Assembly (NCBI GenBank): GCA_043803685.1
Contig: JAZDJU010000080.1
Coordinates: 1 to 39,257 of the forward strand
Origin: Candidatus Omnitrophota bacterium
GTDB taxonomy: Bacteria; Omnitrophota; Omnitrophia; Omnitrophales; Aquincolibacteriaceae
DNA length: 39,257 nucleotides
Direction of reading: 5' to 3'
Part shown: piece after piece, positions 1 to 37,200 of the stretch
Layout: each line of letters starts with the position of its first letter
How positions within the stretch are numbered: the first letter of the stretch is position 1
Translations under genes and position numbers: made by a program
Notes under the pieces: model-generated
The model's input: the letters and a program-made list of their open reading frames with translations, nothing else
Told to the model about the DNA's origin: nothing
Databases searched by the model: none

Positions 1-1961
1 GCTTCACCTGTAAGGAGTTGGGGATCTCTGATTACATTTCCCTCTCCGTCGACGCCGAACATTATTTTCTTTCCATCAGGTTGATTCATGTCATAGATCC
101 TGACAAGTGTCATTTCTGTGCCAGCTGGCACTATTTGGTCATAATTGAGAAGCCCGAGATCCTCAGGAAGCAAATCGAACGCCTTCGTTACCACGCCTCC
201 GGGATTTTTGGATAGAGCCTCAAAAGCTTTGGCGACCCGCTCCTGAGCTTCAATCTGTTCGGGAGATTCATTCCCTAAAGCTTTCATAACCTCAAGAGTC
301 ACTCTATAAGTAATGGCTTCCTGGATCAGGACCGGCACATTTTCCCCCAAGAGGATATGCATGATCTCATGCGCAATCTTGATCGCGAGCCACTTAGCCC
401 TCTCGCCCGACGGGATCTCCTGGTAGGCACCTTGATCGACGATCACCGTGTTCAGTCCGATAAACGCCATCGCAAAAGATTTTGGCCCGGATCTCATAGC
501 TTTGTACTTTTCAGGATCAATCCCGGAAAGGAAAACAACCTTCACCCGATACGCTTCTTCGGGAAGGATCTGCTTTTCCACAAGGAGATCGATCGCGCCC
601 TTCACCACCGCCGTCTCTTTTTCAGAGAAGCTGATGGAATCCCTGAGATCTTTTTCAGTCACTCCTTTGAGTAGCCCCTGACTTTGCACGGCCTCCCACA
701 ATTGAGGAAAGTCGAATTGCACCTGCTGCGAGCGGGCGCTTGAAGAAGCGCTGAAAACTTTCAGAGCCGCATCCTGAAACTTCGCTCGGGGACTCGCGCT
801 CGAACGATCCTTTTTCACCGTATCCGCGATCTTCCGAACCGCATCCTGCATTGCGTTGCGAGCTTCGCTCTCAGAAAGACCGTTCAACGTAGTTTCCATG
901 GCCCTAGCAAGATCCATCGCTCTTGTATCCGCAGGATCTTTGAGCCCAGCCTCATAAAAACCCAACCCAACCAGAAAAAGTTCGGCATACGTTTGCTGTA
1001 GGGACTTTGGCGCCGAGGGATCCATGGATGCGACATAACGTTCCCATAACATTCCCTTGGGCTCATAAATGCCCCGAGGCATTGTCCCGTCAGCGATGAT
1101 TTCCCTGTTTCCAGAATGATCCATTCCTCGCAGGTGAATGACCGGGCGGGACGGATCTTCAGCTGTCAGGCTCCGGATCTGTCCGGCTAGCGCCTCGTCA
1201 CGGATCTTCATCCTCTCATCGCCCCATCGAGTGAACTGCTCGAAGGCACTCATGGCCTTATCAAGACTCCCCTCGCCCAACGCCTCAAAGAACTGTCCGT
1301 AGAAGAGATGGCTGAGCCAGTAGCACAAGGAAGATTCAAAGTCAGGGGCTTCAAATACAACGCCGGGCACATTCGCCGCCGCAAGCGCTTTCAATTCGGC
1401 CCCTCGGAATGTAGCCGCAGGACCGCGCCCCTGGGTTTCGCGAATCAGCTTTTTGGGATCATTAACACCATAGGTCTGAAATCCCTTCCGGGAGGCATAG
1501 AACTTATGCGCCTCTTCGTCGATCCTGGCGCGGATCTCCGGATCCCCTCGATAAAGATCCAGCAACCGGCCCACTCTTGCAAGATCGTCTTTCTCCGGGA
1601 CCTTCCCGGAAAGAAAGGACACCCGACCGCCCTGGAGATCGCCCAAAAGCTTGTTCAGATAATCCGCCCAACCGGTTTCCAGGATGGCCAGGGCATTCGG
1701 CTTGCCGTTCGCTAAACGAGGCGCTTTCATCACGGCCTCGTTGATCAGTGATATCACTTCACGATTCAGGTTTTCAACACCATCGTGCATGACAAATCCC
1801 AGATAGAGAGGTATCGTTCCTGCGCTTGCCGCAACCGGCGCCACAACTGGCGTGGAAACCTGCTGCACCATACCCGCACGCAGATCTCCCGTGAATAGAA
1901 CCGATAACGATAAAAAGAGTGTCAACATCCCAGTCGCAACGATCCGCGAAATAGACATTCC
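1..1961 (-). other. Giant protein module: internal Sec-type signal, TraB/Tiki-like domain, HExxH zincin
   Basis: GMSISRIVATGMLTLFLSLSVLFTGDLRA; VMHD, ILETG, VFEAP, IRDEAL, LRGMDH (about 1090-1810); KIAHEIMH...IQEAIT (HEIMH at 357-371). Confidence 0.6.
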
Positions 1962-4900
1962 CCGCACCTCGGAGCGTTTTTCAGGGACTTCCGATCGAGG
2001 CGCTTGTTCGGATGGGGTTTCAGAGAGTTTATCCTTGAGTTCAGCAACCTTCGCTTTAGCATATTCAACGTACTTATCTAACAAATAATTTGTTTCGGCC
2101 GCCTCTATAAACTTTTCGAACTGGGCGAGAGCCTCCCTGATTTCTCCCGCGGAATTCAAGAGATTACCCAGCCTAAAATAGGGCATAGGGGCCCAGGGCT
2201 TCAATTGACTTGCTTTTTCATAACTCGCCCTGGATTTCGCATAACTCACGTGGGCCGTCGGATAACTCCCCAGGGTTTTGCCATATTTGCCCTTCAATAA
2301 GTAAGCATCACCAAGACCCATATAATCCGTAAAAACGGCAGGTGACATCTCATCCTCGGCATATCCAGGATTCAAACGAATCGCGGCTTCATATAGTTTA
2401 ATGGCATCATCCAAACGAGAGGGGACCGTCATTAACTTATCTCCCAGATTGATGTAAGCATCATGATTCTTGGGATTCAGAGCGATTTGCTGTCTATAGA
2501 GCATTTCCATACGCGCCAAATCTTTGGGAAACACTATCCCCGTGACCACCGCATAATTCCAAAGAAAGAGTTGTATCGCCTCCTGAAACGGTATCACTCT
2601 GATAGCCTTACGAGTGTCCAGCACGACCCCCTCAGGCGGGATCTCACCCCTCTCTAGCTTCGGCCGCCGCTCGTCACTGGAAACAATGCTCGCGTCACGA
2701 TTCTCTGAGGAGGGATCAATCCAACGATATGTTCCGTCTGATAACTCCACCACATTAAAAGCATGTCCTATAAACAACCTATCGCCGGGATAACTCGCGA
2801 CCCAATTTTGAATTCCAAGGTCTTCGAGGTACTTCCCGGCAAAAATGCTTCGGAATACGCAACTCATTTCGCCGCCAGAACGCCAGACCGGCCCAGGAGC
2901 AGCTTCCAAAGCGCCTCTCTCCGGCTTACTCGTATCCACCCACCCGGGAAGCGCTAGAATGGGATCCAGAATTTTCCTGATCGCATCAAGCTCCGCCTGC
3001 ACAACTTGGGGTGAATCGTCACCGTACTTCTGCTTGGCTTCAGCGATCGATTTTTTCAAGCCCGGCACGTTGATCTTCCATCCAAGATAATCTGCAAGGA
3101 GCTTCTGAGTGTCCTTCACGCCTTTAAAATAGGTCGCATACTCAAGCTCGACGAGAATCGTCTGGATCACCAGATCGGTCAGCTTACGCGGGAGATCCAG
3201 CGCCCTGATACTTTTTTCGGCATCCCCTTTCCGGCCAAAGATCTCTTCGAACAATTGGCGTTCCTCTCCACTCAGTCCAAGACGGCTGTAGAACTCCTCG
3301 TTCATTCCCTGCCGCAACGTTTGCTCCACTCCGTTCCCTAACGCGTCGACCGCAGATCCCGCGAGCATGGCCCCCACCCCGGAAAAGGCACTGATCAGGG
3401 ATTGCTGTTCGGGACTGATCTCTCCTCCCCGAGACTTCGCCAGTTGAGTCATGTGATCCGCCATCCCAATGAGCTGCTTCGCTACCTTGGGGAGAAGCAC
3501 ACCCTCACGAACACCGTTGGGAAGCCCTTGAATGACTTTAAGAAGATTGAGAGCCTCTTGGAGCGATAAATTTTCGGGAAGCTGGAAATGATAAACAGCA
3601 CCCTCGCCTTTGCCGGTCACGCTCGGTTTCAAATAGTTTTGGGGCGGGTTCTTCACAAATTTCAGCTCAACACCCCCGGTAAGATTAAACCACGACAAAA
3701 TATCCTTCGTATCGCTATCGAAGCTGATCCCAAACCGGGACAGCACATCTTTCAACGGTAATGTCATCACATCCTGGACAATGGCGTTCTCCAACACGCC
3801 TCCTTGCTGAACCAGCGTCGTTGCAAAACGCGTTGGAACTTCCAGCGTCGCTGCCCACGAAGCCGGCCCATCCAACACCGCAACCCCCGCAGCAGCACCT
3901 AACAATTTCAGAAATGACCTGCGAGACAAGACTGGATTTGTTTTAGCCACATCCGCCGCAGCTGAAATCACCCCATCTCCCCGCATCTCGGAGCGATTTT
4001 GCGATTCACCTTGAGTCGTTTCGATTGAGCTCTCGGGTTTCTGAAGATTGGGCCATAAACTAGGATCTTCAGCGATTTTCAATTCCTCTTGAATCTCTTT
4101 GATGGAGATCCAGGCCGCCCGAACTTCACCCGACAATCCAGGATAATCATGGGCGAGTGACAAAACCTTTTGAAACTGTGCGAGCGCACCTTCAAGATTC
4201 CCGCTATTTTTTAAAATGCCTCCAAGCACTCGAAATTGTCGCAAGCCACCAGGATCCAAGGCGATCAACTTATCAATTTCCGGGATTGCGTCCTCATACT
4301 TTTCAGTTGCAATTAAAGCATCCACAAGGCGAGACCGTGCAATTAAAAGTTTTGGATCCAATGCGATCGCTTGTCTATACGCATCAATAGCCTCTCCAAA
4401 CTTATCCACCCTAGCATATCGTCCACCCTGATCGAAATAGAACTTCGCAGATACAGGATCAGGAGGTTTCTCGCTTCGCATCTCTTCGATGATTTTTGTC
4501 CCCTTAAGAACCGCATCAAAATTGTGACGAAAACTCTCCTTGATCGTGGGCTTAAAAGGAAGAATCCGAGCCGAATCCACGCCAGAGGAATCTCTGAGAT
4601 TTATCAAACGGATCCCAATTTCCGGGATTTCTTTAATACCTAAGTGAGCGTTGAGAATGCTGTAAGCTTTAGGACGCGATGGCTCCACCCATATAAACCT
4701 TCCGTCTGACAATTGGACTAAAAGCAGTATGTGGTTTGCCTTTTCGATAGAACCCGCATAAAACTCGGGTAAGACGCTCCACAGTTTGATCCCAATTTGT
4801 TCCATCTCCTCCCCGCCAATAGCAACTCGCCCTAAACAATTCAGTCTATTGGTAAGTGCCATCCAAGAGGGAGAGGCTTCCACAACTATCGTGGCTTCTT

Positions 4901-7900
4901 CCGTATCCTTGTAGACCCAACCGGGAAGCTTAACGAGCACCTCCACAATTTTTTTGATCGCGTTAAGTTCTACTTCTGACGCCTTTTCTGCTCCCTTCTT
5001 TCTGGCATCCTCGATCGCTTTTTTCAAGGCAGGAATATCGACACCCTTCAAATGTTCTCCGTCGAAATATTCTTTATAGCGCATCAGACCCTGAAAATAC
5101 GCCACCGCTTCAAACTCACTCCGGACTTGATTCACAGCTAGGCGAAGGGCCCTATCCCAAAGCCCGAGCTCGGATATTGCCACGCTCGAAGCACTTTCAC
5201 CAAAATACTGCTTGAATTTGTACCGCTCTTGATTGTAAAGGCCCAAGGCCTTGAATACTTGTCTATCCATCTCCTCCTGCAAGGGCATGGCCCGGATCTC
5301 TTCCAGCGTTGGAAGCACATCTGTCTGGACCGTGGTCAGTAAACTTGTCCCGATCCCGTAAAATCCGTTGATCATCGCAGCTTGTTCAGCCGTAAGTGCC
5401 TGTGTCATCGCCAACTGAGCCATCAGGACCGCCGTAGATTTGAACGTCTCAGCAACCTGCGAAAGGAACACATTGGGGTTGCTACTATGAGGCAGCTTTT
5501 GCAACACCCCAATGAGTTTCAAAGCTTCGCTGACCGTTAAGTCTTCCGGCAACGCGTAATGGTAAACAGCATCACGGCCTTCTCCCTCCATGCTCGCCGG
5601 CTTGTAAAAATCTTTCGCCGGTTCGAGTTTCTCGCGTGGAACGAACTCCACCGTAAAATCCCCACCCGCTAACTTGAGCCACGCCAGATCCACCGGTTCG
5701 CCCAACTTGACGGCCTTACCATCGCCTGCGAAACTTTGCCGCTCCGCTGCTGTCCCGAAAAGAGGCGTACTCATGACCTTAGCCGACAGGGAATTCGCCT
5801 GCACTTGCGCTAAACTCTCCGGCGAGAGCGTTGCGAGCGGCTCCGTCGCGTTCACCTGCCCCCCTCCGCCAGACAATGCCAACATAACCGTGATCAACAA
5901 AACCGTTAGAGACTTTTTAAGATCCTTCCATCCCCGCATCTCCGAGCGCTTGGCCGCTTTTGCTTTTTCGGCCGCGGCGACAGTATCTGCCTTGGCAGCT
6001 GCGGCAATATCCTTTTCGTTTCGCGTATTGAGCCCCTCAAAATGATTTCCGAGGTGCGGCATGAGCTCTTCCATTTTCAGGATTGGAAGCTTAAGAATAA
6101 GGGTGTCAAAAGAACTTTCGCCAGAGAACTTCTCTGTGAAAATGCTCAGCGCATTCCAGATTTTAAAAGTAACCGGATCTGTGACAAAGACCGAGTTCCT
6201 TTCTTTGACGACCAAATACGCCACGGAAGGCTTGCCCGATTTCAACGTGGGATCCATCTTTTCCCCTTGCGGAGGGAATGGTTTCCCGGAAGCAAGCACC
6301 GTCAATTGAAACAATTCTGTCAGACCCGCATCTTCAAGTTCTCGAAATTCCTTTTCGGAGCGTAAGGATAATAACTTTTGATAAACCCTCCGTTGCATAT
6401 GGTCTGAAAAAGCGGCGCTTTTCTCCTTCCCCATCAGACCCGCCATGAGGGCATAGCCTGCACGAACTTTTGTATCACGGAATAACAGCCCGTATTTAGC
6501 AACGCCGGGTTCATTCAAAATAACCTCGCCCTTCTGCCGGTAGATCTCTACCGCAGCCTCGTAATCCCCCCCCGCTGCTTCGACCTCCCTCCGGATATCC
6601 TGAGCGTGTTCCAAAACCTTCCCCATAAAATCAATATCCTCAGGGCTCAGATCCCGCTCCTGCTCCACCAATGCAAGAGGATCGAGACCGTGAGAAGCCA
6701 ACACGGTGATCACCCCCTCAATATCAATGGGCCCGGGCGTCGAAACGGGTGAATGCAAGTCCGCGCTAAATCCCACATAATCCTCTATGGGACCAAGGTT
6801 TTCATTGAGATGGAGTTCCCGTAGATACCCGATCACCGTCTCTCGATGCTCTGGATATTTCCGAGCGAGAGCTTTCACCCTTTGAGCGATCGTGTCCGCC
6901 GAGACCACGGGATCTTCCCCGCTCAGGTTGTAGTGCGCCACATCCAGCACGATCCCGAGATTTTTGAGCGCTCCCGGATCCTGCTCCTTCACGAGCTCGA
7001 AAATATCTTCGAACGCATCCATGAACCCAGCCGATTTCGTGTAATTCTTCTTCCCCGGCGTCTTGTCATGGTAATTTTCAAGATTGATCTTGAGGTCCGG
7101 AGCTGCCTGGCTGGCGTAGAGCACCAACTCGGCATAAGCCTTTTTCGCCTCCGGGCTGAGCGTCATCAAATGAACAACGATGCCGGCCGCTCCGATCTCC
7201 CCCGCGAACCGGATCTGTTCTTTCATGAACTCCGGATTATCCGCCGCGTCCTCAAATAAAAACTGCGCGCCGACCGCCGGCCCCACAATGGAACTATGAA
7301 CTGTCAATTTGATCCCCGTCTTTTCAAGGAGATCCTTAATAGCGTCTTTATATTCAGGCGAGTATTCGCCTGGAAGTCGCCGGGCACTAACCGAACCAGG
7401 TGCAAACCCAGCAGCATACGGTAAATTGTCGAAGGACACTTCAACGTGGGTCAAGCCGCGGTTGTAAGCCTCACGAATCGCTGAAAGGATGTCTCCCTCG
7501 AGATTAAAAAACGCAGAGGCGCCCGCCTCAATGGTCTTAGTGCCTTCCTTACGATCTAGTCGCTGAGCTCCCGGCACATTTCCTGCAACATATTCTGTAA
7601 CGCGCGATTGGAATTTTCCGGCTAATTCCTCCGGCTTCGACGCGGCCTTTAAAGATTCGTAGGTCGTGGCAAGCTTGAAAAGACAGTACGGTTTCCCAAG
7701 CGTCTCGGCCCCCGCTTCTCCGAGGCGATCAAGCGCCCCAACCACCGCCTTCATGGTCCCCTCTTGCAGCTTGTAGGTTCGTGGAGTCCCGTCAGGGCCC
7801 CTGACCCGCAATCCTGCGATCATCGCCTCCGCATCGCGAACCGCCTGATCCCCCCTCACTTCCGAGCGTTTGGGATCAGCATTGAACTTAGGCTCCGCAG

Positions 7901-10900
7901 TCACTGCGTCGGGCAGGGTCACTAGCAGAATCGCATCCGGGACCTCGTTTACCTCAAAATAGACTTCCGGTCCGTCCTTTCCGGGTCTTGTTTTCTGGAC
8001 GGGAACATAAACGCGGCCTGCTAATTGCGTACGACTCAATGGACTCCATATGACCTCGGGAATCGGACGGCCGAAAGCCTTGGAGGAACTTTCGATCGCG
8101 GCTATGTCCCCTGGATTGATGCCTCCCTCGTCCTCAGGATGAGAATGATAGCTGAAGAGATAATTACCGTAACGAGCGAACACCTTTGGAAGCCGCTGCG
8201 CGAGAACGGCTGACTCCAAAAATTCGCCTTGCTGATTTATCACCAACTGAACATCTTCACGCCTGTTGCGAAGCATGAGGGTTTCACCCGTCTTCCCCAG
8301 CGTCACAGCATGAGAAGATGTTTCCAACGATTCAAGGGCTTCCTCGAACGATCCTCTCAGCCGGACCCCCGTCTTTTCAAGGATCAGCTCTTCAATGTTC
8401 CGCTCAACCGTCCGCCCGCCTTGATCCACAAGCGCCTTGACGGACGAATGGTCTCCATTCCGAAGCACCACGGGAAAGGACTCTTCGCTTTGGCCTTTGA
8501 TCGCAATAACAATATGGGAATGATCAAACAGGATCTCTGCCGTGGCACTCGCCAGGGCCGTTTCACGAGAATCCTCCAACGCAAATTCCATCTGATCGGG
8601 AATAATTGTCAATAGGACGGAAACCCCTTTCGGAAGTGTTCCATTCCGGTGGCGCGTGCCCACATCGATAACCATCGCGTCATAGGCGGCCCGAAGATCT
8701 TTCGCTCCCGGGACCAAAGACTCTAATGTTCTAATATTTTGCTCACTTTTAGGATGAGAAATTCTGTCGTTCGCATCTAAATAATCCAGAGGGTATTTTT
8801 GCGAACGGAAAGCACTCCATAAAAGCCCTGCGAGGCCGCTTATGGCTCCAACGAATAGAGACACACCCCAGAGGACCACATTCTCCCAGTTCGAAAATAG
8901 ATCCGTCCTCGCTAAAAACTCCGCAATTAAAAATGAAGCAACCGCCCCTCCCGAAATGGCGCATGCAGCCACCACTCCCCCCCAATACCGATTGATCCAT
9001 TTCTCAACAGCCTCCTGACGATCAAAAAACTTCCGCGCCGCAGGGGACACCCCTGCTAGCACCGGCAAAGAAATACTCGCATCGACAGGTTCAAATTTCT
9101 CCAGCAACTCCTTATCCCTCACCTCCGAGCGCCCATCCGCCGGCGTCGTGGCGGGGACTGCGCTGGGTTGTGTAGTAACTTCACTTGGCGTGGCAGGTGA
9201 AACCTGAGCGGCGGGTTCTCCCCTCTTTTCGGAGCGGACTTTCTTTTGCACCGGAAAACCCGACTCGTCCACAATCCCCTTCGCTACAGCAAAAGATTCG
9301 GCAAAATCTTCTTCGGGCGCCATTTCTGGCGAGTACCATCCATCCCCGGTCTCTTTCCCTGACGCTATATTCTGGCCGTGGGCGGTCACTCTTTCACGAG
9401 CCGACCATGTTTCTCTTTGTTCTTCCGATAATTTTTTCTGCCACACATGGTGACCCGCTTCGTGCAATACGATATGTTCGAATGCGCCGGGATCAAACGC
9501 AAAATCATCCACGCTTGCCAGAGCCATAGTATCGTTGTCTAAATACGGTCCACCGTCACCCAAACGCATCCCGGATACAAGTCCGGCCGCGCGTTGATCA
9601 CGCACAAACCGAATATCCTTGACTCCGAGGGACCTCAAAACGTTTTTGACGGTTTCCGAAAGACCACGGATCCTCGAATAAGGCATCAACGGATCGACCC
9701 AAAACCCGTCGATCAGTTCGTATCCGGCATTTCGATACGCCTCTGCTCGTTTTGCCCGTTGCCTGTCCGCAGTCAACTCGTGGCTTGCGTTCAACAATTC
9801 CCTAGCCAACTGCTGGTTCCGCGCTGCTTCCGAAGAAACCTTTTGCCCGTTTCGAAACCTTAACGCCTCTTCTTCACTACGAACCCATGTTTTTTTGTCT
9901 TCGGACAGCCGGTACAAATGATCTTCGAATTCGTCCTGAGTTATAATTTTAAAGGCTTCCGCGCGTCCCAAAGAATCTCCGGCCTCGAACCTTCTCCGAA
10001 TGTCAGCCTCCTTTTCACTGGCAATATCCAGTGCGGTCCGCGCCTCCGAGCGCTTGAGCGCCGGCGTTGCGGCGGGGTCCATCCCTGTTCCCGGAGTACT
10101 AGGGACCGACCTTGCCTGTTGGGCCTGACTTATCATCTCGCTCAAAGCTTTCTCGTATAGCACACGGTAAGCAAGAAAGGACATGGCCTGGGCAGCCCCG
10201 AGCCCTATCTCAGGTTTAGCGATGCGCTTTCCCTCGGCCTGGATTTCCTTCAGTTCCTCATCGCTAAGAGTAATTTCACGCTTGGCTTGATCAGGAACCT
10301 TTTGCGGATTCTCGACACCTTCCCAGGGAAAATACGGGTAGCGCCTTACACGTTTTAGGTTGGGATCGACTACGTAGGGATCTAATACATCGAACGTATT
10401 CGTTGATGATTTCTCATTCGTACCGAAAAGTCGAAATCCGTCAGTGTCGGTTAAAAGATGGATGACAGGCTTCACACCTTTCGACAGATCAAAGCTACTG
10501 TAGTTGGATGTAGAAATAACAGTCCCCTGCAACCTCTTAAGAAATTCTTCCACCGGCATTGCCAGATCTGAATCGAGGCCGGAAGCTTTTTTTCCTCGAA
10601 AAACAAAGTAGAAGTAACTTTTGACAGGCCAAGGCGGTTGGCCATGAAAGCCCATCACGGGAAGCTCATTGACTCCGATCCGCCGGACCTCATTTTCAAG
10701 CTCCGCAATGTCGCTCTCCAGCGTCGCCAAACGCGACTCGGATCGCTTACCCACCGTCCTAGCTGGAGTTTCAGTGCTCGGGACGCCAAGCGTTGTGGTA
10801 ATTCGCCCGCCCGCGGACGAATTGGGTGCGGCAGATGTTGGAAGATTATTGGTTTGGGATACTGGGCCTGTGATGGGCGTTTTGGCCGCAAGCTTGTTCA

Positions 10901-13172
10901 TGTCAGCCAGCATCGCCGCAGCAACGGCTGAGGGTTCTTGGCCCAGATTCGTGGCAACTTGATTCACGATCGGAGCGATCTGATCCCTAGCGGCATCAGC
11001 GCCGATAGGTTTTATCTCTCCCTTGTCAGTCTTCTGCTTGATGAGTTCTCCCTGCACAGCCAACCCTTGCGCCAATATGGGACTTACCTGCCCGGCCGGT
11101 GCCGGACTACCCGCCAAGTCTGTTAAAACATCTGTGATCTGATCGGTCGTAGCACCCACTTTCCCAATAGCCTCGAGCGCTTCGGCTTCCTGGAGACGGA
11201 TGACGCGATAAATCTTCCGGCTGTTCTTTTCCCCGATCGGTGTCAGAGCGATCTGGATCCCCGCATTTTTGGCATAATCAGACTGGTTAAAGATCCCGAT
11301 AGCCCCATCCACCGTCCCATAATCACCGGCACGTCCGATCGCCCGCAGGACCGGCATCAGATTTCTAAGAACGTCTTGTCCTCCCAACTGTTCGCCTTGC
11401 GCCCTAAATGATTCGAGACGCGACACGGCTTCCAGGTAAGAAAGCTCGAAGGTGCTAGCTTTGTTCTGGAGCATCACACTACGATAAAGATTCTCGTCGG
11501 ATTTTTCGCTGAGGCGCGGGGTGAGAACACCGTAGCTGATCTCATGTTCCCTGAGAAGCTCCGTAATGCCGTCGGTGTGGAAACCTCCCGTGATCACGAC
11601 CGCTTTACTGAGAGATTCCCGGCGCATGACGGTGTCGATCTTTTCGTAAAAGACGTCCTCTCTTTTCCTCGCCGCTTCGTAGAACCGGTACGCCGCTTCC
11701 TGCACCTCAGTCACGGCCTTCTTGAAATTGGGATTGACCGGCTTTGTCTCGAAATTGGAAAGCGGCAGGTTAAGCTGCTGACTCACTAAGATTCCGATCT
11801 TCTTGAGCTCCCCGACCATGGCCTCCATCGAAAGGACTTCTTCCCGGCCAAGCACCTCCTGCCAATCCTTGCGGGTCAATTCGAGATTCAGAAGCTTTCG
11901 AACCAGCTCTTCGTCCCTGTAGAGCGCGAGAAGAGCTTTCTGCTGCTCTGTCGCGGCCAGTTTGTCGAGGATCCGCGTGAACAGGCTCCGGATCTCCGTA
12001 AAAAGACTCTTCGGATCCAGCTCGCTTTTCAGGATGAGATAGCCCGCATAAAGACTGAAGTGAGGATAATCGGAAAATCGAAATCCCTTCGGCCCCGCCT
12101 CCATAACGAGCTGTTCCATGAGATCTCGCGGCTCGATCGGACCCGCCTGGCCCGCCACACCCGTGCGCATCACGCTCAGCCGCTGATCCTTGAAATTCTC
12201 GATCGCGGTCACGAGCTTCGGGGAAACTTTTTTCTCCTTCAGGAACTTGATCAGGGTATCCCGTTCCGAAAGCCCCTTGGCCGTATCGAGTTCTTTTTCC
12301 ATGGCCTGGAGGACCAAAAGCCTCGTGGTCTGCGGCCATTCGACCTGCGCGAGCAAACTTTCAAGATCGATTCCTAGCACTCGTTTCGCTTCCGCGGTGA
12401 GATTGCGAATATAGGGCATGAACTCCCGGTGACCTTTTTCGAATTTCTTCCATTCCCCGAGTAGTTTGATCAGATCGCCCGGGAACACTTTGGAGGCAAG
12501 ACCGGAGAGCCGCCCTTCGAAACCGTCGAGGTACTTTTTTACCGTTGCCTCCGAACCAAACACTTTCTTGAGCGCTTCGTAGTTCTCGCGATAGAGCTCC
12601 GCGTTCTCGATGCCGTGAGCCCTGACGGCGGAGCCGTCAGACTGAAGACTGGAGACTGGAGACTGGAGACTAAAATCCTTCTTGCTGCTGTCTGTGGTCT
12701 GCGGTCTATAGTCTTTATCTGCTTCTAGAAGATAAAGTTCCGCTCCCGTGAGCTCTCCCTGTTCTGCGAGGAATTGCGCGAGCTTCAGGTTCCGCTCCTT
12801 GTCCGGGAACATCTTGAGATAATCAGGATTGAGGTCCTCAGAAGCGCCTTCCACGAAGAGCGTCTTGATGCCATAGGATTTGTCGAGATACTGCAAAAGC
12901 TGTTTGATCTTCTGCTGAGCTCCGTAGTTGGCGTGCGCGTTCTGGATATGCAGGATGAATTTCGGATCGGCGTGCGGCGGCGCCTCGTATAAGCCATCCA
13001 GCGTCGCCAGTTCGTCGGGGATATCGATCTGGAGAAAACCGGGGGTTTCGCGGACCGCCATCATCGCGATCCCGGCTCCGGGATCCGCGAAGGTGACCTG
13101 GCTGGACAGAAAGCAGGCCAACGTCAAGAGACTCGTCGCGCGAATGAGTTTTTGTTTTACTTTCGAAAACAC
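1..13172 (-). CDS. Giant secreted multidomain protein (>=4390 aa, 3' end outside the window)
   Basis: GTG at 13172 with SD AAAGGGGGA at 13181-13189. N-terminus MFSKVKQKLIRATSLLTLACFLSSQVTFA is a Sec signal. Hand translation found no in-frame stop down to position 1, and the ORF track lists no closed minus ORF in this frame. Catalytic motifs occur throughout. Confidence 0.95.
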   Translation of the reverse strand, partial: MFSKVKQKLIRATSLLTLACFLSSQVTFADPGAGIAMMAVRETPGFLQIDIPDELATLDGLYEAPPHADPKFILHIQNAHANYGAQQKIKQLLQYLDKSYGIKTLFVEGASEDLNPDYLKMFPDKERNLKLAQFLAEQGELTGAELYLLEADKDYRPQTTDSSKKDFSLQSPVSSLQSDGSAVRAHGIENAELYRENYEALKKVFGSEATVKKYLDGFEGRLSGLASKVFPGDLIKLLGEWKKFEKGHREFMPYIRNLTAEAKRVLGIDLESLLAQVEWPQTTRLLVLQAMEKELDTAKGLSERDTLIKFLKEKKVSPKLVTAIENFKDQRLSVMRTGVAGQAGPIEPRDLMEQLVMEAGPKGFRFSDYPHFSLYAGYLILKSELDPKSLFTEIRSLFTRILDKLAATEQQKALLALYRDEELVRKLLNLELTRKDWQEVLGREEVLSMEAMVGELKKIGILVSQQLNLPLSNFETKPVNPNFKKAVTEVQEAAYRFYEAARKREDVFYEKIDTVMRRESLSKAVVITGGFHTDGITELLREHEISYGVLTPRLSEKSDENLYRSVMLQNKASTFELSYLEAVSRLESFRAQGEQLGGQDVLRNLMPVLRAIGRAGDYGTVDGAIGIFNQSDYAKNAGIQIALTPIGEKNSRKIYRVIRLQEAEALEAIGKVGATTDQITDVLTDLAGSPAPAGQVSPILAQGLAVQGELIKQKTDKGEIKPIGADAARDQIAPIVNQVATNLGQEPSAVAAAMLADMNKLAAKTPITGPVSQTNNLPTSAAPNSSAGGRITTTLGVPSTETPARTVGKRSESRLATLESDIAELENEVRRIGVNELPVMGFHGQPPWPVKSYFYFVFRGKKASGLDSDLAMPVEEFLKRLQGTVISTSNYSSFDLSKGVKPVIHLLTDTDGFRLFGTNEKSSTNTFDVLDPYVVDPNLKRVRRYPYFPWEGVENPQKVPDQAKREITLSDEELKEIQAEGKRIAKPEIGLGAAQAMSFLAYRVLYEKALSEMISQAQQARSVPSTPGTGMDPAATPALKRSEARTALDIASEKEADIRRRFEAGDSLGRAEAFKIITQDEFEDHLYRLSEDKKTWVRSEEEALRFRNGQKVSSEAARNQQLARELLNASHELTADRQRAKRAEAYRNAGYELIDGFWVDPLMPYSRIRGLSETVKNVLRSLGVKDIRFVRDQRAAGLVSGMRLGDGGPYLDNDTMALASVDDFAFDPGAFEHIVLHEAGHHVWQKKLSEEQRETWSARERVTAHGQNIASGKETGDGWYSPEMAPEEDFAESFAVAKGIVDESGFPVQKKVRSEKRGEPAAQVSPATPSEVTTQPSAVPATTPADGRSEVRDKELLEKFEPVDASISLPVLAGVSPAARKFFDRQEAVEKWINRYWGGVVAACAISGGAVASFLIAEFLARTDLFSNWENVVLWGVSLFVGAISGLAGLLWSAFRSQKYPLDYLDANDRISHPKSEQNIRTLESLVPGAKDLRAAYDAMVIDVGTRHRNGTLPKGVSVLLTIIPDQMEFALEDSRETALASATAEILFDHSHIVIAIKGQSEESFPVVLRNGDHSSVKALVDQGGRTVERNIEELILEKTGVRLRGSFEEALESLETSSHAVTLGKTGETLMLRNRREDVQLVINQQGEFLESAVLAQRLPKVFARYGNYLFSYHSHPEDEGGINPGDIAAIESSSKAFGRPIPEVIWSPLSRTQLAGRVYVPVQKTRPGKDGPEVYFEVNEVPDAILLVTLPDAVTAEPKFNADPKRSEVRGDQAVRDAEAMIAGLRVRGPDGTPRTYKLQEGTMKAVVGALDRLGEAGAETLGKPYCLFKLATTYESLKAASKPEELAGKFQSRVTEYVAGNVPGAQRLDRKEGTKTIEAGASAFFNLEGDILSAIREAYNRGLTHVEVSFDNLPYAAGFAPGSVSARRLPGEYSPEYKDAIKDLLEKTGIKLTVHSSIVGPAVGAQFLFEDAADNPEFMKEQIRFAGEIGAAGIVVHLMTLSPEAKKAYAELVLYASQAAPDLKINLENYHDKTPGKKNYTKSAGFMDAFEDIFELVKEQDPGALKNLGIVLDVAHYNLSGEDPVVSADTIAQRVKALARKYPEHRETVIGYLRELHLNENLGPIEDYVGFSADLHSPVSTPGPIDIEGVITVLASHGLDPLALVEQERDLSPEDIDFMGKVLEHAQDIRREVEAAGGDYEAAVEIYRQKGEVILNEPGVAKYGLLFRDTKVRAGYALMAGLMGKEKSAAFSDHMQRRVYQKLLSLRSEKEFRELEDAGLTELFQLTVLASGKPFPPQGEKMDPTLKSGKPSVAYLVVKERNSVFVTDPVTFKIWNALSIFTEKFSGESSFDTLILKLPILKMEELMPHLGNHFEGLNTRNEKDIAAAAKADTVAAAEKAKAAKRSEMRGWKDLKKSLTVLLITVMLALSGGGGQVNATEPLATLSPESLAQVQANSLSAKVMSTPLFGTAAERQSFAGDGKAVKLGEPVDLAWLKLAGGDFTVEFVPREKLEPAKDFYKPASMEGEGRDAVYHYALPEDLTVSEALKLIGVLQKLPHSSNPNVFLSQVAETFKSTAVLMAQLAMTQALTAEQAAMINGFYGIGTSLLTTVQTDVLPTLEEIRAMPLQEEMDRQVFKALGLYNQERYKFKQYFGESASSVAISELGLWDRALRLAVNQVRSEFEAVAYFQGLMRYKEYFDGEHLKGVDIPALKKAIEDARKKGAEKASEVELNAIKKIVEVLVKLPGWVYKDTEEATIVVEASPSWMALTNRLNCLGRVAIGGEEMEQIGIKLWSVLPEFYAGSIEKANHILLLVQLSDGRFIWVEPSRPKAYSILNAHLGIKEIPEIGIRLINLRDSSGVDSARILPFKPTIKESFRHNFDAVLKGTKIIEEMRSEKPPDPVSAKFYFDQGGRYARVDKFGEAIDAYRQAIALDPKLLIARSRLVDALIATEKYEDAIPEIDKLIALDPGGLRQFRVLGGILKNSGNLEGALAQFQKVLSLAHDYPGLSGEVRAAWISIKEIQEELKIAEDPSLWPNLQKPESSIETTQGESQNRSEMRGDGVISAAADVAKTNPVLSRRSFLKLLGAAAGVAVLDGPASWAATLEVPTRFATTLVQQGGVLENAIVQDVMTLPLKDVLSRFGISFDSDTKDILSWFNLTGGVELKFVKNPPQNYLKPSVTGKGEGAVYHFQLPENLSLQEALNLLKVIQGLPNGVREGVLLPKVAKQLIGMADHMTQLAKSRGGEISPEQQSLISAFSGVGAMLAGSAVDALGNGVEQTLRQGMNEEFYSRLGLSGEERQLFEEIFGRKGDAEKSIRALDLPRKLTDLVIQTILVELEYATYFKGVKDTQKLLADYLGWKINVPGLKKSIAEAKQKYGDDSPQVVQAELDAIRKILDPILALPGWVDTSKPERGALEAAPGPVWRSGGEMSCVFRSIFAGKYLEDLGIQNWVASYPGDRLFIGHAFNVVELSDGTYRWIDPSSENRDASIVSSDERRPKLERGEIPPEGVVLDTRKAIRVIPFQEAIQLFLWNYAVVTGIVFPKDLARMEMLYRQQIALNPKNHDAYINLGDKLMTVPSRLDDAIKLYEAAIRLNPGYAEDEMSPAVFTDYMGLGDAYLLKGKYGKTLGSYPTAHVSYAKSRASYEKASQLKPWAPMPYFRLGNLLNSAGEIREALAQFEKFIEAAETNYLLDKYVEYAKAKVAELKDKLSETPSEQAPRSEVPEKRSEVRGMSISRIVATGMLTLFLSLSVLFTGDLRAGMVQQVSTPVVAPVAASAGTIPLYLGFVMHDGVENLNREVISLINEAVMKAPRLANGKPNALAILETGWADYLNKLLGDLQGGRVSFLSGKVPEKDDLARVGRLLDLYRGDPEIRARIDEEAHKFYASRKGFQTYGVNDPKKLIRETQGRGPAATFRGAELKALAAANVPGVVFEAPDFESSLCYWLSHLFYGQFFEALGEGSLDKAMSAFEQFTRWGDERMKIRDEALAGQIRSLTAEDPSRPVIHLRGMDHSGNREIIADGTMPRGIYEPKGMLWERYVASMDPSAPKSLQQTYAELFLVGLGFYEAGLKDPADTRAMDLARAMETTLNGLSESEARNAMQDAVRKIADTVKKDRSSASPRAKFQDAALKVFSASSSARSQQVQFDFPQLWEAVQSQGLLKGVTEKDLRDSISFSEKETAVVKGAIDLLVEKQILPEEAYRVKVVFLSGIDPEKYKAMRSGPKSFAMAFIGLNTVIVDQGAYQEIPSGERAKWLAIKIAHEIMHILLGENVPVLIQEAITYRVTLEVMKALGNESPEQIEAQERVAKAFEALSKNPGGVVTKAFDLLPEDLGLLNYDQIVPAGTEMTLVRIYDMNQPDGKKIMFGVDGEGNVIRDPQLLTGE
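1977..3980 (-). other. Giant protein module: internal Tat-type signal, transglutaminase-like Cys-His-Asp domain, TPRs
   Basis: SRRSFLK (3906-3926) followed by LLGAAAGVAVLDGPASWA; MSCVFR (Cys 2859-2861); GHAFNVVELSDGTYRWIDPS (His 2763-2765, Asp 2715-2717); TPRs at about 2100-2500. Confidence 0.8.
3996..5933 (-). other. Giant protein module: internal Sec-type signal, transglutaminase-like Cys-His-Glu domain, TPRs
   Basis: GWKDLKKSLTVLLITVMLALSGGGGQVNA; NCLGR (Cys 4836-4838); NHILLLVQLSDGRFIWVEPS (His 4731-4733, Glu 4683-4685); TPRs such as AIDAYRQAIALDP at about 4150-4440. Confidence 0.75.
6660..7530 (-). other. Giant protein module: AP endonuclease 2 / xylose isomerase-like TIM barrel (endonuclease IV-like)
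   Basis: LTVH, IVVH, INLEN, LDVAH, ELHLNEN, ADLH, GPID and LVE appear in the order of the endonuclease IV metal ligands. Confidence 0.85.
7869..9116 (-). other. Giant protein module: two TM helices plus JAB/MPN domain
   Basis: Hydrophobic hairpin at 8808-8987. FSYHSHPEDEGGINPGD (HSH...D at 8106-8147) is HxHx7(N)x2D, with an upstream candidate Glu in RREDVQLVI. Confidence 0.65.
9237..10037 (-). other. Giant protein module: zincin metallopeptidase
   Basis: IVLHEAGHHVW (HEAGH at 9450-9464) with downstream EDFAESF (9291-9311), the third-ligand pattern of anthrax lethal factor-like zincins. Confidence 0.8.
11460..12960 (-). other. Giant protein: N-terminal TraB/Tiki (EreA/ChaN-like fold) domain
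   Basis: Ordered motifs HIQNAH (12933-12950), LFVEG (VEG at 12846-12854), GIEN (12603-12614), FY..A..RE, and AVVITGGFHTDGITELLREHEISY (GGFH at 11577-11588). This matches the H...E...E...R...GxxH pattern of the TraB/Tiki family; no HMM was run. Confidence 0.55.
12639..12714. repeat. Heptamer tandem/inverted repeat inside the giant CDS
   Basis: Five AGACTGG-like units, a spacer, then four inverted GTCTnnn units; the reading frame is kept. Confidence 0.85.
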
Positions 13173-13273: not shown

Positions 13274-13404
13274 TGCAGTAACTAATTTTACTAAATATAA
13301 CTTAACTCATTGCATTTGAATGATTTACGTCATTAATTTATACCGGATAAGCTAGACGCCATGAAACTATGCTCTCATTCTCATTTTTGACTCGTCCAAC
13401 CCCC

Positions 13405-13462
13405 TTTACACACCCGGGGTGTTAAAAGATACGTAACCCTCTTTACACCCCGGGTGTGTAAA
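13405..13462. repeat. REP-like inverted pair
   Basis: Perfect 18-bp inverted repeat TTTACACACCCGGGGTGT (13405-13422) / ACACCCCGGGTGTGTAAA (13445-13462); each arm is itself nearly palindromic. Confidence 0.75.
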
Positions 13463-13528
13463 TGGGTTGAAGGGTGAAAACGGAGCGGCTCTTGAAGTTG
13501 AAATTGTAATTTCGGATACTGCTCGTTG

Positions 13529-34248: not shown

Positions 34249-37200
34249 TCATCCGATCTTCACCTCGGCCACATGTTCGATCCGGTCGTCCACAAGCCGC
34301 AGGGTCTTTTCCTCCTGTACCACGCCATCCAAAGTCACGGAAGTCACGTGATCCGAAGGTCCTGAACGGATAAAAGTAATATGATGGAAGGTCTCCCGGT
34401 ACCGGTAATGAAGCTTCCAGGAAGACCATTCCGCGGGAAGACACGGCTCGAAATAGATCCGGTCCACTTTCAAGCGGATCCCGAGCAAATATTTCACGAT
34501 AAGCTGATACATCCAGGACGCGGACCCGGTGTACCAGGTCCATCCCCCGCGCCCGGCAAGACCCGGCGAGACGTAAACATCTCCGGCCATCACGAAAGGC
34601 TCCACTTTGTAAACGGCACATTTTTCCGCCGTATCGCCGTGATGAACAGGGTTGATCATAGAGAGCAACTCCCAAGCCCGCTTTTGATCCCCGATGACCG
34701 CAAAGGCGATCGCCGCCCAGACCGCTGCGTGCGTGTACTGTCCACCGTTCTCCCTGACGCCCGGGACATAGCCTTTGATGTATCCCGGATTCGGGAAAGC
34801 CTTGTTGAAAGGAGGATCAAATAATTTCACGAGCGAGTGCTTCCTGTCGACCAACTGCCGGTCGACCTGATCCATGGCCTTCCGAGCCCTTTCTTTTTGG
34901 ACCGCGCCTGAAATGACCGCCCAGGATTGCGGGATCGAATCGATACGGCATTCGGTATTCTGGGAAGACCCCAGCGGATCCCCGTTGTCGAAATAAGCCC
35001 GGCGATACCACTCGCCGTCCCAGCCGTGTTCTTCAATATTCTGGGCAAGCTTTCCGGCCTCCACGGTACAAAACTCCGAAAAGTCGGGATCCCCACGCTG
35101 AGCGGCCAAAACCGCCATCGCCTTCAGGACATCGTAAAGAAAAAAAGCAAGCCACACACTTTCGCCTTTTCCTTCGAACCCGACCAAATTCATCCCGTCG
35201 TTCCAGTCCCCGCTGCCCATGAGCGGAAGGCCGTGAGCGCCGAACTTCAACCCTCTTTTGACGCTCAAAACACAATGCTCGTAAAGCGTCCCAGCGCGAG
35301 CCGCGGCCCTAGGCTGATCATAATAAGATTCTTCGGTCGGCTTGACAAGCGGACCTTCCAGAAACCCGATTGTTTCATCCAGGATCCCCGTGTCGCCGAT
35401 CTTTTCGACATAAAGACATGTCACGAACGGAAGCCATAGATAATCATCGGAACACTGGCTCCGGACCCCGCGGCCAGAGGGCGGATGCCACCAGTGCTGA
35501 ACATCTCCCTCGACAAATTGATGCCCCGCGAAGGTCAGCAACTGTTCCCGGACCATTTCCGGTTTTGAATGGATCAGCGCCATCACGTCTTGAAGCTGAT
35601 CCCGGAAACCGAACGCCCCACCGGATTGATAAAAACCGCTTCGCCCCAAAAGGCGGCAGCTGATGATCTGATACTGTAGCCATCCGTTCACGAGAAAATC
35701 GATCGAGGTGTCGGGCGTTTCCACATACACCACACCCAGGGTCTGCTTCCAGTATTCCCACACCCTTTCAAGTTCCTGACGCGCCGCGTCGGTCCCGTTA
35801 AAACGCCGGACCAGATTCCGCGCGTCCTCCACCGTTTGCCCGGAACCGAAAGTAAAGAGGACTTCTTTTTCCTCATGGTCCGCCAGCTCAAATTTCACCT
35901 GAGTCGCCACGCAGGGATCGATCCCCGCGCCCACTTTGCCGGAAAGCCTGTCCCGGCGCATCACCGAAGGCGAGGCCATGGTTCCGTTCCTGCCAATAAA
36001 TTCGATCCGGTCCCCGGTGACGAAACGCGTCGGCTCGCTAACATCCAAAAAGACGGTCCTATCCGGGAATTCTTTGTTGTAAGGGTTGCGGGCAAGCAAA
36101 GCGCCACTTTTGGGATCGATCTCGGTCACGATATGCGTGTGATATTTATCCCGGAAGGTCCCCATGACCAGTTCAAAATAAGCCGTCGCGGAGAGACACC
36201 TCCTCCGTCCGGAAATATTCCGGATCTTCAGCTTTGAGAATTTGACGCGGTCTTCCAGCGAAACGAATACCGTTAATTCGGACACGATTCCGTTCTCGGC
36301 GTGTTCGAAGATACTGTACCCGAACCCGTGGCGCGCGGTGTAACGCGTCTTCCCCGTCGCGGGAAGCGGGGTCGGAGACCAGAATCTCCCGCTCTCGTCA
36401 TCACGGATGTAAAGGGCCTCGCCCGAAGCGTCCGTGACGGCATCGTTCTTCCAAGGCGTGAGACGGAATTCGTGCGCGTTCTCACTCCAAGTATAGGCGC
36501 CGCCGCTTTCGGAGATCACCGTACCGAAGTGACGATTCGCCAACACATTGACCCACGGCGCGGGAGTGGTCTTCACGCTTGAGGTCGTTATCACGTATTC
36601 CCGTCCGTCCCCGGTAAAACCTCCCACACCGTTGTAATAAACAAGGTCGGAACGCTCCCCGGGTCCTTGATCTTCATCCCCCGGATCATCTTTCCGGGTC
36701 GGAACGAACGGCAAAAAGTTCACCTTGGGCTGGGTCACATCCTCGAGTTGCTCGGCCAACGTTCCTCCACGGTCGGAGATGATGATCCGTGCGACCGTCT
36801 GCATAAGGATCTTGTCTTCGTCGGACATCTGATCGGCGCGTCTTAAAAAGATCCCACCTTTCTGGCCCGCCCTTTCCTCGGCGTCGGCAATAATCAACCC
36901 GCTGATCCGCTCCCCCAGGCTGTCGCGGTAAATAGAACTGTCTTCATTCCAGATGACCAGATCGACCGCCAATCCTTTCATGCGCCAGTAGGCATGGGCC
37001 TGCATCATCTGCACGACCAGCTCGATATTGTCCTGGTTCTCGATACGGACGAGCACGATCGGGAGATCGCCGGAAATACTGTACCCCCAAAGATCCGGCT
37101 GGCCCCGGTTATTCCGCCGCAAAACACTCGCGCTCGCTCTCCACGACGGATTCGCGTACAAAATGGCACTGGCCAAACGACCGTAGAGCTGGGCGGAGGC

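Follow-up and report, generated by a model that had tools for sequence, protein, structure and literature searches.

The long reading frame at one end of this Omnitrophota contig raises the question of whether it encodes a single very large protein, or a series of proteins that are made as one chain and divided at a short recurring peptide. The window that we analyzed, 39,257 nucleotides in length, is the entire contig C80 of the source assembly. From a GTG start at 13172 to position 3, the minus-strand frame runs for 4,390 codons with no stop and is open at the contig end, as the earlier note had described from the sequence; the GTG is preceded by a purine-rich, Shine-Dalgarno-like stretch. 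The terminal 21–55 bases are common to no other contig of the assembly, and with no overlap found, 4,390 aa is a lower bound on the length of the ORF. The order of the eight RSExR variants was likewise recovered as first described, at aa 810–3733. The features of the ORF are as follows.

3..13172, minus: giant ORF of 4,390 aa or more, truncated at its 3' side by the contig end
13086..13172, minus: signal-peptide-like N-terminus, aa 1–29, ending in TFA, read from the sequence
11448..13052, minus: conserved head, aa 41–575, predicted alpha/beta core of the TIKI superfamily, split by a large helical insert
12627..12719, minus: in-frame hairpin element of 7-base units (AGACYR-type), in a low-confidence loop of the head
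10746..11447, minus: variable linker from the head to delimiter 1, partly Pro/Ala/Ser/Thr-rich
10731..10745, minus: delimiter 1, RSESR, aa 810
10053..10745, minus: module 2, 231 aa, no family match in Pfam
10038..10052, minus: delimiter 2, RSEAR, aa 1041
9237..10052, minus: module 3, 272 aa, zincin-like, sharing HEAGH and EDFAE with its single homolog
9117..9236, minus: delimiters 3 and 4, RSEKR (aa 1313) and RSEVR (aa 1348), around a 35-aa Pro/Thr-rich spacer
7869..9131, minus: module 4, 421 aa, two hydrophobic helices and a JAB-like YHSHP...D motif
7854..7868, minus: delimiter 5, RSEVR, aa 1769
5949..7868, minus: module 5, 640 aa, AP-endonuclease-2 / xylose-isomerase-like TIM barrel
5934..5948, minus: delimiter 6, RSEMR, aa 2409
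3996..5948, minus: module 6, 651 aa, hydrophobic signal, transglutaminase-like C-H-E core, TPRs
3981..3995, minus: delimiter 7, RSEMR, aa 3060
1977..3995, minus: module 7, 673 aa, twin-arginine-like signal (SRRSFL, aa 3083), transglutaminase-like C-H-D core, TPRs
1962..1976, minus: delimiter 8, RSEVR, aa 3733
900..1976, minus: module 8a, hydrophobic signal and a second, distant TIKI-like domain
3..899, minus: module 8b, zincin-like (HEIMH ... QEA), cut by the contig end

The genes upstream of the giant ORF, identified with Pfam as lpxA-like, fabF-like, rpsA and genes of aromatic amino acid synthesis, are housekeeping genes. The lpxA/fabF arrangement was not seen in the fetched flanks of relatives, and no conserved neighbor was apparent by eye around 19 giant or head-bearing ORFs. 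Small ORFs of mobile or toxin-antitoxin-like type, also judged by eye, are found close to several giants. A long inverted repeat lies at about 13400–13470, in the AT-rich gap that separates the giant gene from the divergent lpxA-like gene, and a gene with a GH94/glucoamylase domain, at least 1,668 aa long, occupies positions 34252–39255 of the same contig.

RSExR occurs eight times in the 4,390 aa, against 0.075 expected by composition, and all eight R.E.R words of the protein are RSExR. The source genome contains 17 ORFs with at least two copies, which together hold 162 copies in 76,296 aa and take up 228,837 bases (7.9% of the assembly); in these ORFs RSE[VMAILT]R is found 157 times, compared with 8–16 times for each one-residue variant. 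Related genomes have preferred forms of the word, with RSESR dominant in G001 and G013, RSETR in G011 and RSE[VM]R in the source genome, G000. The head is present in 15 ORFs of the source genome, the heads of full-length paralogs being 23–59% identical (BLAST), and the complete head-bearing punctuated paralogs measure 2,023–7,108 aa. Fourteen of the 17 RSExR ORFs have a complete 3' end, and all 14 finish in a helix ending in SA or AA. A model of this tail (pLDDT 74.6) gave only generic Rossmann-like fold matches, with Z of 7.7 or lower, and none in Foldseek at E <= 0.001. The same Rossmann-like domain and helix ending in SA or AA are expected beyond the end of our contig. Three giants stand in tandem on G000:C98:2-32360 and two on C59.

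Beyond the source genome, the head was detected in 41/41 genomes of the same order, in 118 of the 151 genomes sampled across the phylum and in 9,724 protein clusters. Among the best 150 of these 9,724 clusters, R[SA]ExR was found in 117 and an SA/AA ending in 112. Named records bearing the head are Omnitrophota or Omnitrophica in 38/52 cases and 'uncultured bacterium' in the remaining 14/52, in agreement with the Atlas. In three genomes, giants appear to be split into two overlapping ORFs in different frames (L045 in G007:C28, L167 in G012:C15 and L160 in G049:C67), by assembly error or by a real frameshift.

This breadth bears on the simplest alternative, that the frame is an assembly artefact or a set of separate genes translated from internal starts. 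No RNA data set was among the sequencing runs listed. One public DNA run (share 0.06) gave 10 scattered pieces without an indel, but these pieces do not span the ORF, so that the evidence for its continuity comes from the assembly and from the family. Moreover, GAGG or GGAG lies inside 83 of the 162 motifs. Against an artefact, the same architecture recurs in the 17 ORFs, in the 41 related genomes and in the thousands of head clusters. Internal translation is opposed by the rarity of an in-frame start 5–7 codons downstream, seen in only 16 of these 83 motifs, and by the absence of Met enrichment after the motif; internal Shine-Dalgarno/start translation was rejected on these two grounds. We regard this alternative, in either form, as highly improbable.

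The codons of the motif allowed the peptide and the DNA to be compared as the object of selection. The last Arg uses all six codons, and in the xxSLG form of the delimiter that other lineages use (see below), Ser is encoded by AGY in 58/97 cases and by TCN in the rest, with all six Leu codons in use. The six Arg codons and the two Ser codon classes indicate that selection acts on the peptide. It could still be proposed that the motif is mainly a scar of recombination or insertion at the DNA level, read through as peptide. The codon bias does exceed its context: the first motif Arg is CGY in 137/162 copies, compared with 108/240 in non-motif R-S(TCN) pairs, and the motif Ser is TCN in 158/162 copies, compared with 240/343 outside the motif. 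Near-identical motif-coding 14-mers also recur within genomes, and modules exchange at the motif. However, besides the free choice of codons and the variable third positions, the YTCNGAR palindrome showed no base pairing (complementary in 76/137, with about 69 expected), the dialects have no DNA word in common, and copying of existing motif DNA would explain the bias. We therefore consider a DNA scar quite improbable as the main role of the motif; the motif-coding 15-mer probably also helps in-frame exchange of modules.

The module calls made from the letters alone fared unevenly. The barrel and the TPRs scored over the Pfam cut-off, and the head was placed by its fold and residues, as described below; the transglutaminase, JAB, zincin and second TIKI-like calls are motif readings in small alignments, to which an Atlas lead (0.78) can be added for the transglutaminase. 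Module 5 matched AP_endonuc_2 (PF01261) with E 1.8e-12 and 47.9 bits against a curated cut-off of 31.1, and fell far below the cut-off of the endonuclease IV equivalog. Between their bounding motifs, modules 6 and 7 share 28% identity, and both carry TPRs above the cut-off; in an alignment of 11 transglutaminase-like cores, which have no Pfam match, Cys is kept in 10/11, and His and Asp/Glu are less regular. Module 4 is 46% identical to a motif-bounded module in the paralog on C57 and ends on the motif in both proteins. With respect to the JAB/MPN pattern HxH-x7-S-x2-D, it retains HSHP and Asp in 3/3 sequences, with the Ser replaced by Asn in this ORF, and it matched no profile and no PDB sequence. 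The zincin motifs of modules 3 and 8b are conserved in one and two homologs, respectively, without a profile match.

The six homologs of module 2 all belong to ORFs of 3,577–9,339 aa, and every one begins immediately behind a motif; the GFHG / TxNYS pattern of module 2 is, as we presume from the letters, reminiscent of ADP-ribosyltransferases. In module 8a, H, E, R and GxxH are invariant in 4/4 sequences; compared with the head by profile, it reached a probability of 2.7% with only the R...GxxH half aligned, and no PDB sequence matched it. Modules 8a and 8b are joined without a delimiter. Homologs of modules 2, 3, 4, 5 and 8a occur in 2 to 7 of 96 genomes, nearly all in long ORFs, and among proteins of similar length no stand-alone homolog of module 7 or of the module 3 core was found at E <= 0.001. 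The words effector and hydrolase, which the earlier note applied to this cargo, would be predictions from sequence motifs.

Comparison among giants showed that the cargo turns over rapidly behind the head. In the 20 regions fetched for the giants with the nearest heads (59–65% identical), nothing is common after aa ~590–770 except one zincin segment in L046. The ends of 41 internal alignments between 37 giants fall within 25 aa of a motif in 78/164 cases, against a null of 26.2 (SD 4.6, maximum 40 in 500 slides), and 14 motifs lie inside alignments against a null of 62.5; these alignments are non-independent, one of them reflects an overlap within a single gene, and alignment ends are drawn to the motif itself. 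In a genome that uses GFGA as its delimiter, the TGase-TPR module starts at GFGA. A recurrent motif at domain boundaries, as a polyprotein would have, is therefore present with exceptions, namely the 8a/8b junction and the segment lengths, of which 33/839 exceed 1,000 aa and 105/839 are under 60 aa. Turnover, boundary alignments and module homologs together support the claim of a conserved head followed by an exchangeable string of modules bounded by one peptide.

The head was modeled with a pLDDT of 86.4. Foldseek returned no match at E <= 0.001, no Pfam family scored over its cut-off, and the head profile found nothing significant among PDB sequences; the sole Pfam exception was ChaN, in 2/33 head members with a best E of 0.00024. 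A wide fold search of 50 rows included seven TIKI-family chains at Z 6.0–8.8: HopBA1 (8.8), EreC (8.2), ChaN (7.8), Bcr135 (7.5, with two chains of this type), RRSP (6.1) and PMT (6.0), with 155–196 residues aligned at rmsd 4.0–5.8. These scores are middling, with a non-TIKI methyltransferase at rank 2 and shorter unrelated alpha/beta matches mixed in. The key residues of this head are N78, H80, E108, R504 and H532, the core being split by a helical insert of ~290 aa. H80, E108, R504 and H532 are invariant in 111/111 heads, and position 78 is D in 78, N in 25, S in 5, T in 2 and E in 1, i.e., an acid in 79/111. RRSP needs E3900, H3902, E3930, R4001 and H4030, the need for Glu3900 having been shown in vitro (PMC6254334). 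Residue spacings are 2, 28 and 28 in the head and 2, 28 and 29 in RRSP, as matched by order and spacing and without residue-level superposition.

By its predicted fold together with these residues, the head is a TIKI-superfamily domain, and it may be a protease. With N78, this copy lacks the complete 2His/2Glu set of the RRSP type, and its activity may be weakened. The hairpin element in the head has 51 loose pattern matches genome-wide, some of them in other coding frames. A further relative, L020:202-2418 (G000:C114), is a 739-aa protein consisting of head and tail, without motif or cargo; it has Gln at the usually-Glu position 393 and is divergent from a giant paralog.

If the chain were cut at the motif, signals located after the cut could act as new N-termini, and the distribution of such signals is uneven. 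A hydrophobic segment lies 5–45 aa after 113 of the 930 motifs in 109 proteins, compared with 21 upstream and with a null of 40 (SD 6), and twin-Arg words follow 12 motifs against a null of 2.6. Directly behind the motif, some homologs of modules 7 and 8a have such a signal and others do not. The Tat call for module 7 held in part, as the signal after the motif at aa 3060 passes the TIGR01409 cut-off and lies under the Pfam cut-off. TatC was not found in the 91%-complete source genome, despite twin-arginine signals after motifs in this ORF (~3910–3930) and in paralogs on C123; it is present in 3/19 other genomes of the genus and in 59/96 of the order. Helices that follow the motif show no enrichment of signal-peptidase-like AxA sites behind them (23/79 versus 18/83).

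These observations also bear on a second alternative, in which the protein remains a single, membrane-tethered chain of several enzymes and RSExR serves as a docking, sorting or modification site for a genome-level factor. We infer cleavage rather than observe it; with TatC not found and AxA sites not enriched, the post-motif helices may be plain anchors, and long motif-free stretches exist. A preprint on a multi-enzyme class of such proteins treats them as single chains with signal peptide and transmembrane segments, suppresses internal signal calls as artefacts and, in its main text, is silent on cleavage, motif and polyprotein (bioRxiv 10.64898/2026.06.07.730766). An intact chain does not readily account for signals that lie on one side of the motif only, for homologous modules that gain or lose a signal right after it, or for a hydrolase site kept in every head. 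In 31 of 57 proteins, Lys/Arg are more numerous before than after the first isolated helix past the head, and in 14 they are more numerous after it; this is the opposite of single-chain threading, a weak indication that is not motif-specific. On balance, we judge an intact chain to be rather unlikely.

If the chain is cut, the question becomes which protein reads the delimiter. Across the phylum the delimiter is lineage-specific: besides R[SA]ExR we found [GA]xSLG, GFGA, GARM, RxSTS and possibly PRAPP, and no delimiter was detected after 35/111 heads. In same-genome pairs of heads less than 35% identical, the dialect is shared in 95/96, compared with 642/2,393 pairs across genomes; the PRAPP label of G034_L069, the source of all 5 same-genome mismatches, is probably a mislabel and was kept in the counts. 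Outside the genus, the best relative in the sample has a different word for 8 of the 12 heads of the source genome. Dialects differ between well-supported sister heads, and on the head tree (FastTree) RSExR needs at least 11 changes. Among 34 dereplicated heads no column co-varied with dialect (best family-wise p 0.97, at low power).

Genomes with a single head provide a second line of evidence. In 9/10 of those examined, the head is a stand-alone protein of 520–670 aa. In G128, G119 and G136, headless giants that have a signal peptide, and in most cases an Ala-ending tail, lie downstream of this protein, and in these giants AG.EE or GLEE occurs in 8, 9 and 8 copies against 0.3–0.4 expected, giving the delimiter [AS]G[LAM]EE; no enriched word was found downstream of the stand-alone head in G141, G145 and G050. 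In G141, the stand-alone head L149 (G141:C3) is followed by four signal-peptide genes of 1,279–2,268 aa, one with a head-like motif. In four genomes that belong to a single family (L144, L145, L170, L171), what we take to be a GH94-like gene lies directly upstream of the stand-alone head.

Given that the delimiter follows the genome and not the head clade, and that stand-alone heads lie upstream of headless giants, these data point to a reader acting in trans. The comparison with MARTX toxins in the earlier note implied a third alternative, namely cis autoprocessing, with each head cutting its own chain at RSExR. Such a role would agree with the retention of H, E, R and H in every head, with a fold that includes the site-specific endopeptidase RRSP, and with the position of the first motif at a median of 128 aa past the head among 111 heads. 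It fits poorly with sister heads that differ in dialect while distant heads of one genome agree, with heads in which no specificity column was detected, with headless punctuated giants downstream of a single head gene, and with the N78 of this copy. Cis autoprocessing is thus improbable, and a trans reader that is genetically tied to the head fits better. Searches of the source genome, which is 91% complete, gave no C39 or S8 peptidase (controls positive in 7/14 and 8/14 cases); gingipain C25 gave no match either, in a search whose control was likewise negative throughout.

In the reading that we prefer, to which we give about an even chance, one protease serves all of these polyproteins and cuts them at the motif, a role that probably falls to the heads acting in trans. 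Within this reading, the head family as reader in trans, either as a pool of heads or as one privileged paralog, is a tentative proposal, and a separate protease is an unlikely one. The gene would be translated into a polyprotein comprising a signal peptide, a TIKI-fold head, variable modules each the size of a whole protein, and a conserved tail, in which RSExR would be a protein-level punctuation signal. A reader common to all such genes in the cell would cut at or next to RSExR, and the cut would free modules whose own N-terminal membrane or export signals could then act. A further point against this model is the compartment: the signal peptide should take the head out of the cytoplasm, whereas signals after the motif would require cutting on the cytoplasmic side. 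The processed effector array of the earlier note thus stands in its conserved head, exchangeable modules and recurring boundary peptide, and its processing remains a prediction. From the lifestyle of the phylum (PMC10066038) and from the hydrolase-like cargo, the modules may be used against host or prey cells.

A wider proposal, which we hold tentatively at well below even chances, is that of a phylum-wide polyprotein system with a private five-residue code per lineage (RSExR, xxSLG, GFGA, GARM, RxSTS, AGLEE). The code would be read in trans by a TIKI-fold protease, fused to the giant or encoded alone upstream, and cutting would free fast-evolving enzymes whose Sec-/Tat-like signals may act in the producer or in the host; action in the host is proposed because TatC was not found in most of the genus.

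The architecture is a real feature. A literature search drawing mostly on sources outside subscription journals, and on papers without their supplements, found no paper describing this head or delimiter, and the architecture is undescribed in the literature searched. The delimiter provides a directly testable cleavage rule: for each genome it gives exact sites to seek in proteomics and a candidate enzyme, and it could split thousands of unannotated giants into foldable units. If the cut is real, cells would have an equivalent of viral polyprotein processing whose code is specific to the lineage, and the giants would bring with them a new site-specific protease family and many new enzymes from host-dependent bacteria.

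Among known systems, the giant proteins of Omnitrophota (Archaeovorin and Dockerin types) are the closest in origin, sharing the phylum, very long multi-enzyme ORFs, a signal peptide and membrane helices (bioRxiv 10.1101/2023.11.21.568195; also PMC10066038). Cleavage of these giants into pieces has been proposed, with C39 or S8 domains as candidates, and the cleavage points were stated to be lacking, which blocked analysis (bioRxiv 10.1101/2023.11.21.568195). The main-text passages of the published accounts mention no TIKI head, delimiter or SA/AA tail. Unlike the Archaeovorin type, the sequenced part of our ORF has no C39/S8 or SecA DEAD domains, and no type II secretion-like locus lies upstream of it. 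Archaeovorin-type giants have 30,000 aa or more; our truncated ORF has at least 4,390 aa, and its complete head-bearing punctuated paralogs have 2,023–7,108 aa.

The head shares with the TIKI superfamily (Tiki/TraB, EreA-C, Bcr135/136, ChaN, HopBA1, RRSP and PMT C2; PMC6254334) a parallel beta-sheet core and the order and spacing of His, Glu, Arg and His. It differs in the helical insert that splits the core and in its first acid, which is usually Asp and is replaced by Asn here. In MARTX toxins, conserved ends flank exchangeable effector domains with processing sites (PMC4453568), and conserved ends around an exchangeable series of modules are common to both systems. In contrast to MARTX, the sequenced part has no glycine-rich or RTX repeats, complete paralogs end in an alpha/beta tail, the giant has an N-terminal signal peptide and cargo with its own membrane signals, and the reader apparently acts in trans on a genome-specific word. 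The sequenced 4,390 aa, which stop short of the 3' end of the gene, gave no match to a cysteine protease domain (CPD).

Viral polyproteins and cyanobactin precursors also yield many products from one ORF, with a short word between them and one protease. The giants described here differ from both in being a cellular multigene family, with enzyme-sized cargo that turns over fast and a delimiter word that is specific to the lineage.
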